A stretch of DNA of 32,000 nt from Candidatus Iainarchaeum sp. (GCA_043808785.1 JAZDEL010000002.1:150001-182000); one strand, 5' to 3'. Positions 23,790-32,000 are shown, numbered from the stretch's first letter. The notes: a model not told the origin generated them from the sequence alone. Program-made: numbers and translations.

Positions 23790-23875
23790 GCGCGGGCTTC
23801 AAAATCCGCCGATATGCCTTCACGTTCAACCGTCGGTTTTTTATTCAAGTTCGGGGAAAAGTATTGTGTGGTAAA

Positions 23876-24097
23876 ATGGAAAGAAAATTCAAGATAGTCG
23901 TGGAGAAGGGCATTGACGGCTATTTCATAGGCGAGGCGCCCGAACTGCCGGGCTGTTATTCGCAGGGAAAAACACTCGGCGAACTCATGGACAACATGAG
24001 GGAGGCGATAGAGCTTTACATGGAATCCGCGGAGCAGACAGGCGTGCCGCGGGAAATAAGGTTTATTGCGATAAAAGAAGTTGTGGTAAATGCCTAA
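23876..24097 (+). CDS. hicB: HicB-like antitoxin, copy 2
   Basis: MERKFKIVVEKGIDGYFIGEAPELPGCYSQGKTLGELMDNMREAIELYME is paralogous to copy 1. The ATG is at 23876. Confidence 0.75.
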   Translation: MERKFKIVVEKGIDGYFIGEAPELPGCYSQGKTLGELMDNMREAIELYMESAEQTGVPREIRFIAIKEVVVNA

Positions 24098-24317
24098 ACT
24101 CAAGCCCCTTTCTCCGCAAAATCTGGCAAAAATCGCAGGCAAGCTCGGCTTCAGGCCCCTGAGGCGGAAAGGCAGCCATGCAACATTCGCGAATAGCGAA
24201 GGCAGGATTCTCGTAATCCCTATGCATTCGGGCACGAAGATTGACCGCGGGCTTCTGCTGAAAATAATAAAAAAGGATTTCGGGATTACGAGGGAGGAGT
24301 TTGAGAAGCTGCTGTAA
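24090..24317 (+). CDS. hicA: HicA mRNA-interferase toxin, copy 2
   Basis: MPKLKPLSPQNLAKIAGKLGFRPLRRKGSHATF...IPMHSG. It has the same 8-nt ATGCCTAA overlap with hicB as in copy 1. Confidence 0.8.
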   Translation: MPKLKPLSPQNLAKIAGKLGFRPLRRKGSHATFANSEGRILVIPMHSGTKIDRGLLLKIIKKDFGITREEFEKLL

Positions 24318-24399: not shown

Positions 24400-25983
24400 T
24401 CAGGTTGCGCGCCTCCCGTGCAGCAAGCCGCGCAGTTCAAGTTCTTTTCTCGCGCCATCAATAAGTTCATTTATCTGTTTGACTTCCCCTTCTTTTCCGT
24501 CCAGTTCCGCAGCCTGCGTGAAGAGCATTTCATGCCAGTTCACCTTCCCGTTTGTTTTCTCCTGATGTTCGACAAATTTCCTGTAGTGAACTCCGGGCGG
24601 CGCTGGAACGCAGCCGAAAACCGAAATAGGAATGTGGTATTTTTCTGCGACAAGGAAAAGGAATTTTCCGCTTTCGAGCATGTTGCGCAGCGGCTCTATT
24701 TTCCCTTTCCCATTAACATTCCCGAAAACAAAAAACGCCTCTGGCTGGAAATTCGGCAGGGAAAGATAGCCTGCATTGTTCATTTCCTCTAGCAATTGCA
24801 CAACCATTTCAACGCTGTGCGGCTTCCTTATGTAATTCCGTAGTGTGTCGTCGGAGCCGGACTCAACAGGTATCGCAAAGCGCACAAGGATTCCTTCCTT
24901 TGCCAGCTCGCCGAGGCAGTGCAGCGCTTTGCAGCCATCGGCCAGCAGCGAGGAAATCGTAAGCCCGTTCGGGAACTGGATGCACCTGAAGCCCTGCTCC
25001 CTGCAGAACCCGAGTATTTTTATTCCGTCCTCCCTGTGTTCGGGCATGAAACCGAAAAAATTGTCGTCTTCGAAACTTATTGTATTGTAACGCTCGCTCC
25101 TGATTTTTGAAATTTCCTCGAAAATCTTCGGCATTGGCAGCCTGTCCCAGAATTTGGCTGTTTTGCCGTGGCTGCCGCATAATTGCTCATGAAACTCTTT
25201 GATGTGGCAGAACTCGCAATTGAAAGGGCAGCCGTTGCTGGTTGATATTTCCGTTGCAGGAGGGAACGGCGTAGGGCCCGCGTGCGGGTTGTTGAGTTCG
25301 CTGTACGCGTCAGGGGCACTTCCATTTGCGCGCTTCAGGAACTGCCTGTTGTACGAATACTTGTAATTCCTTAGGTCGAGCGCAGGCAGGGGTGTTTGAA
25401 CAAACGCGCCGTTTTCGCCAACATATGCAATCCCGCGGATTCTTGAAAGCGCCCCGAAATATTCCACCTCCGCAAGCACTCCCTTTTTTGGCAGCAAATT
25501 TGCAAGTGCAACTGTCGTTTCCTCAGCAAGCCCTATGCCCCTGCCAAGCACGATAATATCAACGCCCTCTATTTTTTCGCTCTCCGTGCCGAAGCCGAGG
25601 ATGCCGCGCGCATTGCAGGATGCAGCAACCCCGCCCATTATAACAGGCACGTGCGGAAGCGCAGCCTTAATCATGTGCACGAGTTCAGCCTTTATCCCCT
25701 GCTCGGCAAGAAGGGTGTGTGTAATTCCTATGGTATCTGGCTTCTCTGCAATAATTTGTTTCAGCAGTTCCCCGTTGCCAAAGCCGTACTCACGTAAGCC
25801 CGCGATTTTGCCCTCCACCTTTCTCCTTGCAAAGGGCGCCTCTATGAAGCCGTCAATAATCTTAACTTCGTGCCCGTTTTTGCACAGCGCATCAGCAGCC
25901 AGCATAAGCCCGAGCGGAGCCTGCCCGCGCGGCTTTTCACCAGGAATGAGTTTTGCTGTCTCGACAAGAACTATCTTCGCCAT
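24400..25983 (-). CDS. B12-binding-domain radical SAM enzyme (class B-like), substrate unknown
   Basis: The N-terminal Rossmann-like domain reads MAKIVLVETAK...APLGLMLAADALCKNGHEVKIIDG...PDTIGITH...VIMGGVAAS. The radical SAM cluster motif is TSNGCPFNCEFC (CxxxCxxC). The ATG at 25983 is 1 nt after the panD TAA. Confidence 0.8.
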   Translation of the reverse strand: MAKIVLVETAKLIPGEKPRGQAPLGLMLAADALCKNGHEVKIIDGFIEAPFARRKVEGKIAGLREYGFGNGELLKQIIAEKPDTIGITHTLLAEQGIKAELVHMIKAALPHVPVIMGGVAASCNARGILGFGTESEKIEGVDIIVLGRGIGLAEETTVALANLLPKKGVLAEVEYFGALSRIRGIAYVGENGAFVQTPLPALDLRNYKYSYNRQFLKRANGSAPDAYSELNNPHAGPTPFPPATEISTSNGCPFNCEFCHIKEFHEQLCGSHGKTAKFWDRLPMPKIFEEISKIRSERYNTISFEDDNFFGFMPEHREDGIKILGFCREQGFRCIQFPNGLTISSLLADGCKALHCLGELAKEGILVRFAIPVESGSDDTLRNYIRKPHSVEMVVQLLEEMNNAGYLSLPNFQPEAFFVFGNVNGKGKIEPLRNMLESGKFLFLVAEKYHIPISVFGCVPAPPGVHYRKFVEHQEKTNGKVNWHEMLFTQAAELDGKEGEVKQINELIDGARKELELRGLLHGRRAT

Positions 25984-25984
25984 C

Positions 25985-26326
25985 TTACTTCGCCCTATTT
26001 TTGGAGTCCGCATGCACAATCTTCGGCATGATTTCCTCCCCCTCTTCCAGAAGCGCGAACGCGGCAATTATAACCAAGTCCCCCTTCTTCGCGCGGTGCG
26101 CTGCTGCGCCGTTCACTATTACTTCTCCAGAGCCGCGCACTGCAGGAACAGCGTAGGTTTCAAACCTTTTCCCATTCGAAACGTTCCACACCTCTACCTT
26201 CTCGTGCTGAATTATTCCCGCAGCCTCCATAAGCGCCCCGTCAATTGTTATGCTCCCTTCGTAATCCAAATCCGCGCCCGTAACCGTGGCACGGTGGATT
26301 TTGGATTTCAGCATTATTAATTGCAT
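25985..26326 (-). CDS. panD: Pyruvoyl-dependent aspartate 1-decarboxylase
   Basis: [30 protein letters not shown]...GKRFETYAV...[23 protein letters not shown] contains the Gly-Ser self-cleavage site within YEGS. The ATG at 26326 is 5 nt after the methyltransferase TGA. Confidence 0.85.
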
Positions 26327-26331
26327 CCTAC

Positions 26332-27117
26332 TCACTTCCGCGCGAGGAAAACATCGTAATTTTTTTCCCCTGCAATATCCACATATGTTTCGATGTCTTT
26401 GAATCCCGCCTCTTTCATGAATTCAAGCAGTTCGGAGTGGCGCATGTGGTATGCCCTGCAGAGCAGTTTCACCCTTTCGGTTTGCTCCGTGCCGCCGTTG
26501 CATTCCGCCCTCACGATTGCCTCAGGCTCCCATGTGCGCACATGCCTTACCAAATCGTGCGTAATCTTCCATTTCAGTTCGACATCCTCGCCGCTTATTT
26601 TCTTCCTGCCGAAGTTTTCATTAAATATGGTCTGCTTCGGCGTGAAGCTCTCGCGTGGGGAGCAGTCTACGTAGCAGAGCCCGCCAGGAGCCAGCACGCT
26701 GTAGAATGCCTTTATTGAACGTGCGATTTCATCTTTCGCGCGGGAGCAATCAACTTCCTCCCTCCCCCATGAAACCGCATAAGGCAGGGAATTTCCCCTG
26801 CACATCACAGCATCGAATTCCTCCCCGAACTGCTTCGGCAGTTCGCGCCACCTTGCGTGCAGCGCCCTTATCTTCACGCCCTCCTTTGCGCAGTTGCGCC
26901 TGAACTGTGCAAGCATCTGCCTGCTGCCGTCGGTGCACACTAAATCGTAGCCGAGTTTTTTCAGTTCTATCGCCGGATATCCTACGCCGCAGGAGCCGTC
27001 AAGTATTTTGCGTATTTTCCCGCCCCTGAACAGCGCATCCAGAGATTTCACATATGTGCCATTATACATGAAATGCAGGCTCGTTTCCCAGAGCCACACC
27101 AAGTCCCTTTTCGCCAT
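26332..27117 (-). CDS. Class I SAM-dependent methyltransferase, glycine/sarcosine N-methyltransferase-like
   Basis: Motif I is [42 protein letters not shown] resembles the GNMT C-L-G-N-S-F segment. There is a long post-core region, as in GNMT-type enzymes. Confidence 0.75.
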
Positions 27118-27189
27118 AAGACTCGCCTACATAACTGCACCCTGCCAAACTAATATAATTTTCCAGAAAATATTAAGCCAAAATGATAA

Positions 27190-27199
27190 CTTTATATAC
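27190..27199 (+). promoter_or_regulatory. TATA-like box CTTTATATAC ~27 nt upstream of the Lrp-like gene ATG
   Basis: The divergent AT-rich intergenic region 27118-27221 also contains taatataatttt (27151-27162), a candidate box for the minus-strand operon. Confidence 0.45.
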
Positions 27200-27221
27200 A
27201 ATTTTATCCATATACTAAAAT

Positions 27222-28208
27222 ATGGCGGAATGGCTTAATCCCTTCAAGGAACTTGGCCTTGACAGCAGGGACAGGAAGATAATGTACGAACTTGATGTGA
27301 ACGCGCGCCAGAGCAGCGCGCAGATAGCGAAAAAGCTGAGGCTCGATAAGGCTGTGGTGAATTACAGGATAAAAAAACTCCTTGACGCTGAAGTAATCCT
27401 CGGCTTCTACACGATAATCGACACAACAAAGCTCGGCTATGAGGGCTACAGGCTTTACCTTAAATTCCAGAACCTCGACGCAAAGAAGGAGGGCGAGATA
27501 ACTTCATTCATAGTTAAAAGCCCGCTTACGTGGTGGGTCGGCTCGATAGACGGGAACTGGGATATGGGCGTTTTGCTCTGGGTGCGCAACGTATATGAAC
27601 TCAAGAAATTCTGGTGCGAGTTCATGGAAAAATACGGCGAATATGTGCAGGACGAGGTAATTTCAGTTTACGCAAACCTTTACCATTTCAGCTATGCTTT
27701 CATTTACCCGGGAAAAGTTGCCGAGCCCGCAATGCAGGAGGTAGGAAGCGCGGAAAAGGTGCAGGCAACAGAAAACGAGGAGAAGGTCCTGCGCGTGCTC
27801 GCCGAGAACGCCCGCATGCCGACTGTTGAAATCGCGGAAAAAACAGGATTAACCCCGATGGTTGTTAAATATGCGATAAAAAAAATGTCCGAGAACGGGG
27901 TGATAAAAGGATTCAGGGTTATGTTCAACCTCGGCCTGCTGAATTACACTTACTATAAGGTGGATGTGAACATCTCGGACTTCTCGCGTTATTCCGCGTT
28001 GTTCGATTTCGCAAGGGCGCAGCCGAACGTAATTTACATTGACAGGACAATAGGCGCAGGGGACCTTGAAATGAACCTGCTTGTTGAAACGCACGAGCAG
28101 TTCCACGACATAATGCGCGAACTTAAGGCGAAGTTCCCCGGGGTTGTAAGGGATTACAGTTACATGATTTATTCGAAGATACACAAGATTGCCTATTACC
28201 AGCACTGA
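27222..28208 (+). CDS. Tandem (duplicated) Lrp/AsnC-family transcription regulator
   Basis: There are two HTH_AsnC-like units, DSRDRKIMYELDVNARQSSAQIAKKLRLDKAVVNYRIKKL and ENEEKVLRVLAENARMPTVEIAEKTGLTPMVVKYAIKKM. Each is followed by a RAM-like domain. Confidence 0.8.
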   Translation: MAEWLNPFKELGLDSRDRKIMYELDVNARQSSAQIAKKLRLDKAVVNYRIKKLLDAEVILGFYTIIDTTKLGYEGYRLYLKFQNLDAKKEGEITSFIVKSPLTWWVGSIDGNWDMGVLLWVRNVYELKKFWCEFMEKYGEYVQDEVISVYANLYHFSYAFIYPGKVAEPAMQEVGSAEKVQATENEEKVLRVLAENARMPTVEIAEKTGLTPMVVKYAIKKMSENGVIKGFRVMFNLGLLNYTYYKVDVNISDFSRYSALFDFARAQPNVIYIDRTIGAGDLEMNLLVETHEQFHDIMRELKAKFPGVVRDYSYMIYSKIHKIAYYQH

Positions 28209-29707: not shown

Positions 29708-29823
29708 GCACTGAAATATGGCGCAAGTTTTTATAAAGCAGTGTTTGCTGGAAAATTTTGGCGCCAAAATTGTGCGGTGATAATTATATATATGCGGTTG
29801 CAGTTATAGTTTCAGTTAGAATT

Positions 29824-32000
29824 ATGAAAAACACCCGCCTAATTGGAACCCGCGGGCAGGCAAGCCCGCTGGTTGTCCTTGCTCTTTTGTTTGCAATAGC
29901 GGTCGCCCTTTCCGCGCAGGACAGCAGGGCGCCCTCGGGCATGGCATCCCTCTTCTTTCAGGAGAGCACGGCAACAAGCGAGCAGATAACATGCTATTTC
30001 ACGGGCTCCTTCGCAGCATCCCCTCAGAACTGCTACACCGCGGACGGAAAATTTTCATGCTCGGGCACGGGAACATGCATGGTTGCTGTTGAAGGCTCGA
30101 GCGGCTATAAAGTGGACTGGAAAAGCAGCTGCGGGGGGTATGCAACAACCGTAATCGACGGCACAGGCGAAAGCATAACTTTCAATTGCGAGCCATCCCA
30201 GCAGCCGGCAGCGACATCGGCTGACATAAAGGAGCAGGTAACCTGCAAATTTTTAAACTCGGGTTCCCCGCAGAAATGCCGCACCACCAACGGAAAATTC
30301 TCGTGCGACGGCACTGGAACCTGCACAGCGGAAGTTTACGGCGCAAGCGGCACAAAATTCGAATGGGACAGCACCTGCAGCGGTTATGCCTCGACAACGG
30401 TTGACGGGATTAACAAAACAATAACCTTCGAATGCCCGCAGGCTTCAGGCACACCAACGGAAACTCAAACACAGTCAACTTCGCCATACTCCTGCCCGTC
30501 AAACTGCGTATGCCTGGCTGAGGCGGACGGAAAGAACCTTGGCTACTCTTTTTGCGGAGGCACGCCCACGGTTTGCAGCTACGACCAGTATAAGGTGCCC
30601 AAGTATTGTTATTATGCAGGGCAAAAGGCGGAACCGCGGGCAAATACTTACCCGTCCGCAACCCAGCAACAGCTGACAACCCAAGACCTAACCCTGATGG
30701 CGGTCCTGTATGCTTACTACACGGAAAATTGCGGGCAGGCATGCGAGGATGCGAGAAAGTTCTTGGCGGAAATGAAGGCGAAATATTCCCCGAATTTTAT
30801 TTACAGCGAGGGAGTTCTCCACGCTTCCGATATCCGCTCCGAAAACGACCAAAAAATTCTTGATGTTCTGGGCATGACTATAAAGGATACCACTCCGACA
30901 ATTGCCATTGGCAGCAAACTATTGCACAAGCTTGATACTGAACAGATAGAGCAAACAATAAAGGAATGCATCGATAACCCCGGGTCGTGCGGTCCCGTGC
31001 CGTCTGTCCTGGAACCTTTTGCGGCATCCCCGCCGAAGATGTATGTTGCGGGGCAGCCGCAAACAAGCCGGCAGCAAAATCAGGTTCCCCCTTCGGGCCC
31101 GTGCAAAGAGGGCTCAACGGCATATTACACCTGCCCCGCGAACAGGGTCGGGGAGCAGCCGCAGATGCCCTGGTGCGTGTGCAAAATAGATGCGTGGCAG
31201 TGCGACCCCCGCCCTGAAAGCGCCTGTCCGCCCGTTGATGCCTGCCCTGCAAAAATAGATATGGAGCTTGACAAGAAAGTTTATTACCCCGGCGATGCTG
31301 CCAAACTCAGCGTGAAGATTTATGATTCCTCGGGAAAACCTCTCCCGAACCAGGCTTTTTACCAGCATACTTACAGCCCATCCGGCGCGTTCAAGCCGCA
31401 AAGTACAAATTTCGCCATGAGGGTTGGCAAAGACGGCACTTACACATCCGAAGGCAGGATTCCAAGCGACCTGCCGCCGGGCAGGGTTATTACAGGCGCT
31501 TACACAATGGGCTATGAGGCGTGGTGCGCCTCTGTCAATGATAATTTTGAATTTGAAATCGCCGACAGCGCGGCTTTGCAGCCTGTGTGCGGCAACGGAG
31601 TATGCGAGCCCGGCGAGGGGCAGACATGCACTGTTGCAGCAGTAGCCTGCAAGCCGGATACAGTATGCGAGATTCCGAAGCCGAGCTGCAGCGTTCCCTG
31701 TCCGCAGGACTGCTATAGCAAGCCGACGGTGCAGAGTACAACCCTGCACGCCGCCGAGAATAAGTTCAAGCTTTCAATTAACCAGACCGTCAGCTTCGGT
31801 GAGCCGAATAATCTTTCGCTTACGCTCGTCAATGTAATTGTCCCGCAGTGCAAAGAACTCAGGGCGGAGCAGCCAAAATCCGTGCTCGAGACAGAGCAGC
31901 CAAGACCGGCGCTTGAGAGGCCTGCAGTTCCCGTACCGGAAGAAAAACCGCCTGCAACAGCCCCAGCCGGGCAAACCATGGAAAAGGCAAGGGACAAGGT
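29824..32000 (+). CDS. Large secreted Cys-rich surface protein, 5' partial (runs off the window end)
   Basis: Absent from the ORF track because it is open-ended. Manual translation gives the signal peptide MKNTRLIGTRGQASPLVVLALLFAIAVALSAQ. It contains a duplicated ~67-aa 8-Cys module (29986-30189 and 30235-30435), a thioredoxin-fold-like segment (30688-30972), an MG/Ig-like segment (KKVYYPGDAAKLSVKIYD) and a CGNGVCEPGEG motif. Confidence 0.7.
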   Translation, partial: MKNTRLIGTRGQASPLVVLALLFAIAVALSAQDSRAPSGMASLFFQESTATSEQITCYFTGSFAASPQNCYTADGKFSCSGTGTCMVAVEGSSGYKVDWKSSCGGYATTVIDGTGESITFNCEPSQQPAATSADIKEQVTCKFLNSGSPQKCRTTNGKFSCDGTGTCTAEVYGASGTKFEWDSTCSGYASTTVDGINKTITFECPQASGTPTETQTQSTSPYSCPSNCVCLAEADGKNLGYSFCGGTPTVCSYDQYKVPKYCYYAGQKAEPRANTYPSATQQQLTTQDLTLMAVLYAYYTENCGQACEDARKFLAEMKAKYSPNFIYSEGVLHASDIRSENDQKILDVLGMTIKDTTPTIAIGSKLLHKLDTEQIEQTIKECIDNPGSCGPVPSVLEPFAASPPKMYVAGQPQTSRQQNQVPPSGPCKEGSTAYYTCPANRVGEQPQMPWCVCKIDAWQCDPRPESACPPVDACPAKIDMELDKKVYYPGDAAKLSVKIYDSSGKPLPNQAFYQHTYSPSGAFKPQSTNFAMRVGKDGTYTSEGRIPSDLPPGRVITGAYTMGYEAWCASVNDNFEFEIADSAALQPVCGNGVCEPGEGQTCTVAAVACKPDTVCEIPKPSCSVPCPQDCYSKPTVQSTTLHAAENKFKLSINQTVSFGEPNNLSLTLVNVIVPQCKELRAEQPKSVLETEQPRPALERPAVPVPEEKPPATAPAGQTMEKARDK

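Follow-up and report, generated by a model that had tools for sequence, protein, structure and literature searches.

A bacterial-type panD gene inside a regulator-methyltransferase-radical SAM cassette of a Diapherotrites archaeon

Why should the gene for an aspartate decarboxylase, PanD, lie wedged between a methyltransferase gene and the gene for a radical S-adenosylmethionine (SAM) enzyme in an archaeon? The question is raised by a 32 kb stretch of DNA (JAZDEL010000002.1:150001-182000, hereafter the window) from the metagenome-assembled genome (MAG) of a Candidatus Diapherotrites archaeon, a tiny, symbiotic-type member of DPANN, in which these three genes are packed on the minus strand and a duplicated Lrp/AsnC-type regulator is transcribed away from them. 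A first-pass annotation of the sequence had read the trio as a candidate pathway for the modification of beta-alanine. We found that the unit which recurs at related loci is a winged-helix regulator together with the methyltransferase and/or the radical SAM enzyme, and not the trio, and that PanD is an add-on to this older cassette rather than part of its core. We suggest that the captured gene may here supply the cassette with beta-alanine. The features concerned, counted from the first nucleotide of the window, are as follows.

24400-25983, minus strand: radical SAM enzyme (rSAM), 527 aa, with a B12-binding-type Rossmann N-domain and a CPFNCEFC core; class-B-like
25985-26326, minus strand: PanD, pyruvoyl aspartate 1-decarboxylase, 113 aa (PF02261, TIGR00223)
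26332-27117, minus strand: GNMT/GSMT-like class I SAM methyltransferase (MT), 261 aa (Methyltransf_25)
27118-27221: divergent promoter spacer, 104 nt, 72% AT
27222-28208, plus strand: tandem Lrp/AsnC regulator of the feast/famine (FFRP) type, 328 aa, with two HTH_AsnC/HTH_24 helix-turn-helix (HTH) modules

The open reading frame (ORF) list and the sequence agree on the gene order MT, panD, rSAM, with gaps of 1-5 nt, and on the junction coordinates given in the first-pass annotation. The TGA stop codon of the MT gene occupies positions 26334-26332 and the panD ATG follows at 26326, 5 nt past the stop; a GTG at 26335, which overlaps the MT stop as GTGA, is an alternative start, and it is the ATG that yields the usual PanD N-terminus, MxxxML. 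At the second junction the panD TAA (25987-25985) is separated from the rSAM ATG (25983) by 1 nt. Co-transcription of the three genes is very likely on this layout, and the spacing suggests that they are also translationally coupled. The motifs that had been picked out by eye are all present in the translations (ILDGSCGVG and CRGNSLPY in MT, LDYEGS in PanD and CPFNCEFC in rSAM), and the profile matches for PanD (PF02261) and rSAM (PF02310 and PF04055) all lie above their cut-offs. The duplicated regulator likewise proved to be divergent across an AT-rich spacer and to contain two HTH modules, as described. All four protein sequences match NCBI entries MFH1224596-MFH1224599 exactly.

How widely this arrangement is shared was addressed by a locus survey, which drew on stored gene calls, genome and metagenome scans, jackhmmer searches and ORF maps of the retrievable MT and rSAM relatives. 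The following layouts were found.

Window and L001: tandem Lrp regulator divergent from MT-PanD-rSAM
L006/L007: tandem Lrp regulator divergent from MT-rSAM (1-nt overlap between the MT and rSAM genes), no PanD
L009/L010: TrmB-type HTH regulator divergent from a TehB-like, non-orthologous MT plus rSAM, no PanD, with bacterial-type neighbours
L011, L012 (archaeon DeMMO3_27), L017, L020 and L022: tandem Lrp regulator divergent from rSAM alone
L008 and L013 (Patescibacteria): TrmB regulator divergent from rSAM alone
L002 (53% identity), L019 and L021: rSAM without such a regulator as neighbour
L018: rSAM at a contig edge, upstream sequence cut off
L003, L004 and L005: tandem Lrp regulator divergent from MT alone

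Counted as distinct loci, eight combine a tandem Lrp regulator with rSAM, three a TrmB regulator with rSAM and three a tandem Lrp regulator with MT alone, while MT-rSAM pairs without PanD account for two, one of which has the non-orthologous MT. Regulator orthologues stand divergently beside MT and/or rSAM in 11 distinct loci, the window included. Among the surveyed loci, the window and L001 are the only two in which PanD lies beside either enzyme gene, and it is because PanD is confined to them that we define the recurring unit without it. Co-conservation and synteny of the trio in related genomes, which the first-pass annotation had held out as the mark of a real pathway, are thus seen only between the window and a near-identical locus whose flanks are 92-97% identical, and the trio as a conserved unit was rejected. 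The cassette itself has a patchy distribution in DPANN archaea and in bacteria of the candidate phyla radiation (CPR/Patescibacteria), and its regulator is a tandem Lrp protein in the archaea and a TrmB protein in the bacteria. In a rough neighbour-joining tree the MT-linked rSAMs fall on deeper branches and the archaeal (Lrp-linked) and bacterial (TrmB-linked) members are intermixed; this tree is indicative only, and it suggests that the rSAM cassette has been transferred between DPANN and CPR with replacement of the regulator.

The three loci with MT as the only enzyme of the cassette have distinctive surroundings. A gene for a NadE/QueC-like ATP-pyrophosphatase is located between regulator and MT in a Diapherotrites MAG (L004:7131-8000), where it abuts MT under the divergent tandem Lrp regulator and constitutes a different enzyme partner for MT. 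An Asp/Glu racemase gene (L003:4384-5070) and an ATP-binding cassette (ABC) transporter are encoded just upstream of the tandem-Lrp/MT pair of L003; these neighbours could be a sign that the substrates are of the aspartate or glutamate type, or their presence may be a coincidence. Elsewhere on its contig, L005 encodes an MCM helicase product of 2302 aa with several intein and LAGLIDADG insertions (L005:1-3819).

The comparison between the window and L001 is informative about the history of the operon. The same tight MT-PanD-rSAM packing is present in L001, and the encoded proteins differ markedly in their conservation: identity is 97% for aIF1A, 94% for aIF2-beta and 92% for the RIO kinase in the flanks, and 89% for PanD, 80% for rSAM, 71% for the regulator and 36% for MT (window 26332-27117 against L001:3765-4517). 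The operon is fast-evolving relative to the flanking housekeeping genes, and the MT of L001 is, by its sequence, a different member of the MT family that was swapped in. PanD nevertheless sits 1-5 nt from both of its neighbours in both genomes despite the replacement of MT. Since MT is only 36% identical while PanD and rSAM are 89% and 80% identical at fixed spacing, PanD and rSAM would seem to have been kept as a pair. Synteny between the window and L001 breaks at the 3' end of the regulator. In L001 the tandem Lrp regulator (L001:1844-3625, minus strand) is a 593-aa fusion with a GSMT-like C-terminal domain that carries CLGNSL and IDERN. The glycine/sarcosine methyltransferase model NF051855 (cut-off 350) gives this domain 166.5 bits, which places it much closer to genuine GSMT than any stand-alone MT. 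By its domain composition the protein joins a regulator to an enzyme in the Rosetta-stone manner, and a second GSMT-like domain at the locus echoes, by analogy, the two-enzyme stepwise synthesis of betaine. No pantothenate (pan) or coenzyme A (coa) Pfam family was found among the called genes of L001.

PanD itself is a conventional member of its family. It scores 155.5 bits on PF02261 (cut-off 25) and 135.5 bits on TIGR00223 (cut-off 106), and a gap-free alignment with E. coli PanD (PDB 1ppy) shows that K9, H11, Y22, E23, G24, S25, R54, T57, Y58, N72 and I86 are all kept. By these residues the protein is predicted to be a bona fide and catalytically intact PanD. Outside the lineage its homologues are at most 65% identical, and those with a named source are bacterial (Deltaproteobacteria, Dadabacteria, Binatia and Thermodesulfobacteriota). 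Because the next-best relatives are bacterial and at most 65% identical, we regard panD as a bacterial-type gene that was captured in this lineage. The G+C fraction at third codon positions is 0.60 for panD and 0.59 for rSAM, and somewhat higher, at 0.65-0.75, for the housekeeping genes. A literature search on panD with B12-dependent radical SAM enzymes, or on Diapherotrites with pantothenate, returned nothing relevant.

The regulator consists of two halves (residues 10-162 and 175-322), each of which aligns with full-length archaeal regulators, namely PH1519/FL11, the 150-aa 2efn-type protein and LrpA. The ligand-binding RAM domain AsnC_trans_reg was detected in the second half only, and at 21.8 bits, which is under the cut-off of 25. 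We considered whether the protein might instead be a siroheme decarboxylase of the AhbA/AhbB (NirDL) type and rejected this idea: it scores 23.2 bits against AhbA (cut-off 140) and 19.6 bits against AhbB (cut-off 125), and no AhbAB or NirDL chain is among its PDB matches at E<0.01. Within the spacer, a block at 27176-27205 (CAAAATGATAAnTTTATATA), some 20-45 nt upstream of the regulator start, includes a TATA-like element and is largely common to the spacers of the window, L001, L003 and L006. It is probably a TATA/B recognition element (BRE) combined with a putative operator. The spacer also holds one palindrome and one 12-nt direct repeat.

For MT, the general Methyltransf_25 profile gives 49.6 bits and NF051855 gives 73 bits against a cut-off of 350; members of the family as a whole score 61-83 bits on the latter. 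Nine homologues were found with a family-specific 12-letter segment that is invariant or nearly so. A search of the PDB with the family profile places GSMT (1.3e-23) and GNMT (~3e-19) well above generic methyltransferases, and the two stretches that had first drawn attention align accordingly, the SAM motif I ILDGSCGVG with LDVATGTG and CRGNSLPY with CLGNSF of GSMT. The GNS segment is invariant in the family alignment (A4) and nearly so in a second alignment (A3), which consists of an A4-type family set plus one non-orthologous MT. The structural model (predicted local distance difference test, pLDDT, 89.9) has GSMT, GNMT, PsmD, TylM1 and CypM as its top Foldseek matches, with similar scores. 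The GNMT/GSMT-like assignment of the first-pass annotation therefore holds in the sense that GSMT and GNMT are the nearest solved relatives, and MT is a GNMT-fold enzyme, a class in which amine N-methylases are most frequent, outside the GSMT equivalog. We found no support for its being the methionine S-methyltransferase MmtN of DPANN and CPR (PMC9135737), which is absent from the best 60 PDB profile matches, although this is a weak test without a direct comparison to an MmtN sequence. A scan of viral contigs with the MT profile gave zero matches.

The rSAM enzyme belongs to a very rare family without a characterised member. Its profile scores are 38.7 bits for PF02310 (cut-off 32.1) and 45 bits for PF04055 (cut-off 29.5), the B12-binding domain call being weaker or absent in some members of the family, and the CxxxCxxC cysteines C252, C256 and C259 are invariant in the family alignment (A1). 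HMMER found five relatives at E<1e-30 and 32 at E<1e-10 among 1.84 billion representatives, and just two close relatives, at 80% and 53% identity, are present in a database of 5.8 billion clusters; the contigs of one distant relative (P0021) are too short for gene context, and on a metagenome contig six distant radical SAM paralogues follow one another, five being encoded on the same strand (L023:4583-12892). None of the NCBIfam equivalogs comes near its cut-off for rSAM, the best being Sden_1168 with 37.5 bits against 575. The enzyme scores below every cut-off for the characterised class B subfamilies HpnR (34 bits, cut-off 650), BchE (23.9 bits, cut-off 481), PhpK/Sden_1168, KedN5 and ApyD, and it falls outside each of them. 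A sequence search of the PDB likewise gave zero matches at E<0.01. Structure is more revealing. The AlphaFold (AF2) model (pLDDT 89.8; predicted template modelling score, pTM, 0.89) is matched best by CysS and TokK, cobalamin-dependent C-methylases that act iteratively (E 1e-16 to 1e-15, template modelling score, TM, 0.54-0.58), next by the cobalamin-free dehydratase AprD4 and then more weakly by MiaB and RimO, and it also superposes partly on the cobalamin (Cbl) domains of methionine synthase. Based on this model the enzyme is class-B-like and probably a methylase, and it may use cobalamin. Two other assignments were considered. A methylthiotransferase of the MiaB/RimO kind would have a triad of N-terminal cysteines for its auxiliary [4Fe-4S] cluster, and this reading was rejected, as A1 contains no invariant Cys beyond C252, C256 and C259. 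Membership in an established group of lipid or cofactor enzymes (HpnR, BchE or the tetraether synthase Tes/GDGT-MAS) has no support in the profile scores or in Foldseek, where GDGT-MAS is missing from the top 50 structural matches.

What, then, might PanD contribute to this locus? The explanation that we favour, to which we would assign a probability of roughly 40%, is that panD was inserted into an older regulator-MT-rSAM cassette and feeds it with beta-alanine. A bacterial-type panD has entered between the MT and rSAM genes in one Diapherotrites lineage, and its product would make beta-alanine from aspartate inside the cell as a substrate for the cassette. The cassette would methylate a small amino-acid-like amine, with MT acting on nitrogen and rSAM on carbon, and the regulator would sense an amino acid. 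The position of panD between both enzyme genes, its retention with rSAM through the exchange of MT, the GSMT-type character of MT with the further GSMT-like domain of L001, the resemblance of the rSAM model to C-methylases and a regulator of an amino-acid-sensing type all speak for this, and methylation of beta-alanine is plausible in this setting. A number of observations weigh against it. Cassettes from beyond a single narrow lineage all lack PanD, which the ancestral function therefore does not need, and MT and rSAM each occur singly with the regulator, so the two enzymes need not share a substrate. MT lies far under the GSMT equivalog cut-off; its structural neighbours also include C-methyltransferases (PsmD, SeMT), amino-sugar N-methylases (TylM1, CalS10) and the peptide N-methylase CypM; and the family arginine (in PRE) is two positions off the carboxylate-binding arginine of GSMT (in DQRN; R175 of GNMT) in the profile alignment. 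AprD4 matches the rSAM model about as well as the methylases do, so that neither methylation nor use of B12 is assured. Finally, the window encodes CoA-dependent enzymes, and PanD could simply serve CoA supply.

This last point leads to a different account, possible though less persuasive to us, in which PanD is a metabolic passenger acquired from bacteria, makes beta-alanine either to supply CoA or pantothenate or to be exchanged with a host, and is only co-expressed with an MT and an rSAM that act on something unrelated. Such a passenger would be at home at this locus, where the exchange of MT and the fusion of the regulator in L001 mark a recombination hot spot, and the cassette does without PanD in all other lineages. 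The PanD of the window passes the TIGR00223 cut-off as a canonical equivalog and has every Asp-specific residue. The cell must need CoA, because an ADP-forming acetyl-CoA synthetase and a 2-oxoacid:ferredoxin oxidoreductase are encoded in the window. On the other hand, no pan or coa family was found among those ORFs of the window that were scanned with Pfam, in agreement with the earlier statement that panB, panC, panE and coaBC are absent from it, and the same holds for the called genes of L001. DPANN genomes usually lack the pantoate branch, and beta-alanine would therefore have no route into CoA. It would also be a curious passenger that sits exactly between two enzyme genes with gaps of 1-5 nt and is retained with rSAM through an exchange of MT. 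We think it unlikely that the targets of MT and rSAM are proteins, RNA or membrane lipids rather than a free small molecule, with PanD again unrelated. The occurrence of rSAM alone with the regulator in most loci would fit a universal cellular target, Foldseek returns the RNA and protein modifiers MiaB and RimO and matches the MT model to CypM, and the neighbouring genes are often related to translation. Translation genes, however, are simply abundant in such small genomes, a dedicated divergent regulator of the amino-acid type is rare for constitutive modification enzymes, and the fused GSMT-like domain of L001 points to small amino acids; in addition, no N-terminal Cys is conserved in rSAM, which leaves no auxiliary cluster of a methylthiotransferase, and GDGT-MAS is not among its top 50 structural matches.

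The strong form of the original proposal, in which MT-PanD-rSAM is a conserved and dedicated beta-alanine pathway that makes, for example, a beta-alanine-betaine-like osmolyte, appears to us improbable, although a dedicated pathway is possible. Its enzyme families were assigned correctly, the packing is tight, the trio recurs in L001, and the GSMT/GNMT-like MT is joined there by a second GSMT-like domain. The synteny on which it depended has largely failed, however, as the window and L001, with flanks 92-97% identical, are effectively one observation, and the 13 other distinct loci with a member of the MT or rSAM family all lack PanD; moreover, the synthesis of betaine has no role for a radical SAM enzyme. 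Least probable of all, and entirely speculative, is a route in which rSAM C-methylates aspartate, PanD decarboxylates the methylaspartate to a product of the beta-aminoisobutyrate type, and MT then N-methylates it. There is a precedent in CrpG, a PanD homologue that decarboxylates 3-methylaspartate in cryptophycin biosynthesis, and both the resemblance of the rSAM model to sp3 C-methylases and the retention of PanD and rSAM as a pair would suit it, but the PanD of the window is a canonical equivalog, ~60-65% identical to ordinary bacterial PanDs, and has no residue change that points to an altered substrate pocket.

Returning to capture of panD for substrate supply, one may go further and picture the cassette as an undescribed system for the methylation of small molecules, passed between DPANN and CPR, which yields an amino-acid derivative methylated on nitrogen and/or carbon that serves a symbiotic lifestyle, for example as osmolyte, signal or antimetabolite. 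Capture of panD would have made the cassette self-sufficient in the present lineage, its product would be a methylated beta-alanine, and the GSMT-like domain of the L001 regulator would be catalytic or sensing. We regard this larger picture as doubtful. The more robust result is the existence of a regulator-MT-rSAM cassette common to DPANN and CPR, together with the Lrp-GSMT fusion. That these groups share it, each with a regulator appropriate to its domain, provides a tangible example of genes moving between two ultra-small radiations, and a cassette of two or three genes is a tractable target for heterologous expression. If PanD does feed both enzymes, the locus would encode the first pathway in archaea that leads to a methylated beta-amino acid and provide the first substrate clue for an rSAM family without a characterised member. 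If it is a mere passenger, the locus amounts to an ordinary accessory operon at a hot spot of recombination.

The surroundings of the operon are mixed. Other genes of the window encode aIF2-beta, DUF424, aIF1A, a RIO kinase, topoisomerase VI and tRNA-Cys, and there is also a histidine kinase with a response regulator. A HicB-HicA toxin-antitoxin pair (23864-24317, plus strand) is convergent to rSAM and lies ~80 nt from its stop codon; the equivalent region of L001 has a HicB-like gene and no match to HicA. Toxin-antitoxin modules such as HicAB often mark variable regions. The distance of ~80 nt between the rSAM stop (24400) and the convergent hicA is too small for a precursor gene, and a cluster for a ribosomally synthesised and post-translationally modified peptide (RiPP) is unlikely here. 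A long ORF (29737-32000, plus strand), missing from the computed ORF list, is cut off by the end of the window; it spans at least 720 aa, and its N-terminus resembles a signal peptide (MKNTRLIGTRGQASPLVVLALLFAIAVALSA). At the other end, an ORF on the minus strand (3-1028) that runs off the start resembles a phosphoenolpyruvate (PEP)-utilising enzyme (N-terminus of PEP synthase or pyruvate phosphate dikinase, PPDK). Its homologue follows rSAM in L011 and appears to hold an intein-like insertion.

Compared with systems that are already understood, the locus is a variant built from known kinds of enzyme and not a demonstrably new pathway. The regulator shares with FL11 and LrpA an HTH in each half and a full-length alignment, and its orientation, divergent from a likely target, is typical of local regulators; unlike them it fuses two complete units in one 328-aa chain. 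PanD aligns with the E. coli enzyme over its full length and has all of the catalytic and self-processing residues, but it lacks the C-terminal tail of the latter (113 versus 126 aa), and its archaeal gene is found within a methyltransferase/radical SAM operon and not next to panB or panC. MT has in common with GSMT of Methanohalophilus portucalensis (PDB 5gwx and 5h02) and with GNMT the class I SAM fold, the GNMT-type cap, motif I and the GNS segment, yet the identity is ~20% and the C-terminal half aligns poorly, and the window has no SDMT partner. The closest structural parallels of rSAM, CysS (PDB 9n1b) and TokK (PDB 7kdx), share its N-terminal Rossmann/B12-type domain, its CxxxCxxC barrel and its helical C-terminal region at an identity of 14-15%, rSAM being ~100-130 residues shorter. 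Those two enzymes belong to large gene clusters for antibiotics, where they work on pantetheinylated intermediates, whereas rSAM is found in tiny genomes, by itself or next to a single MT.

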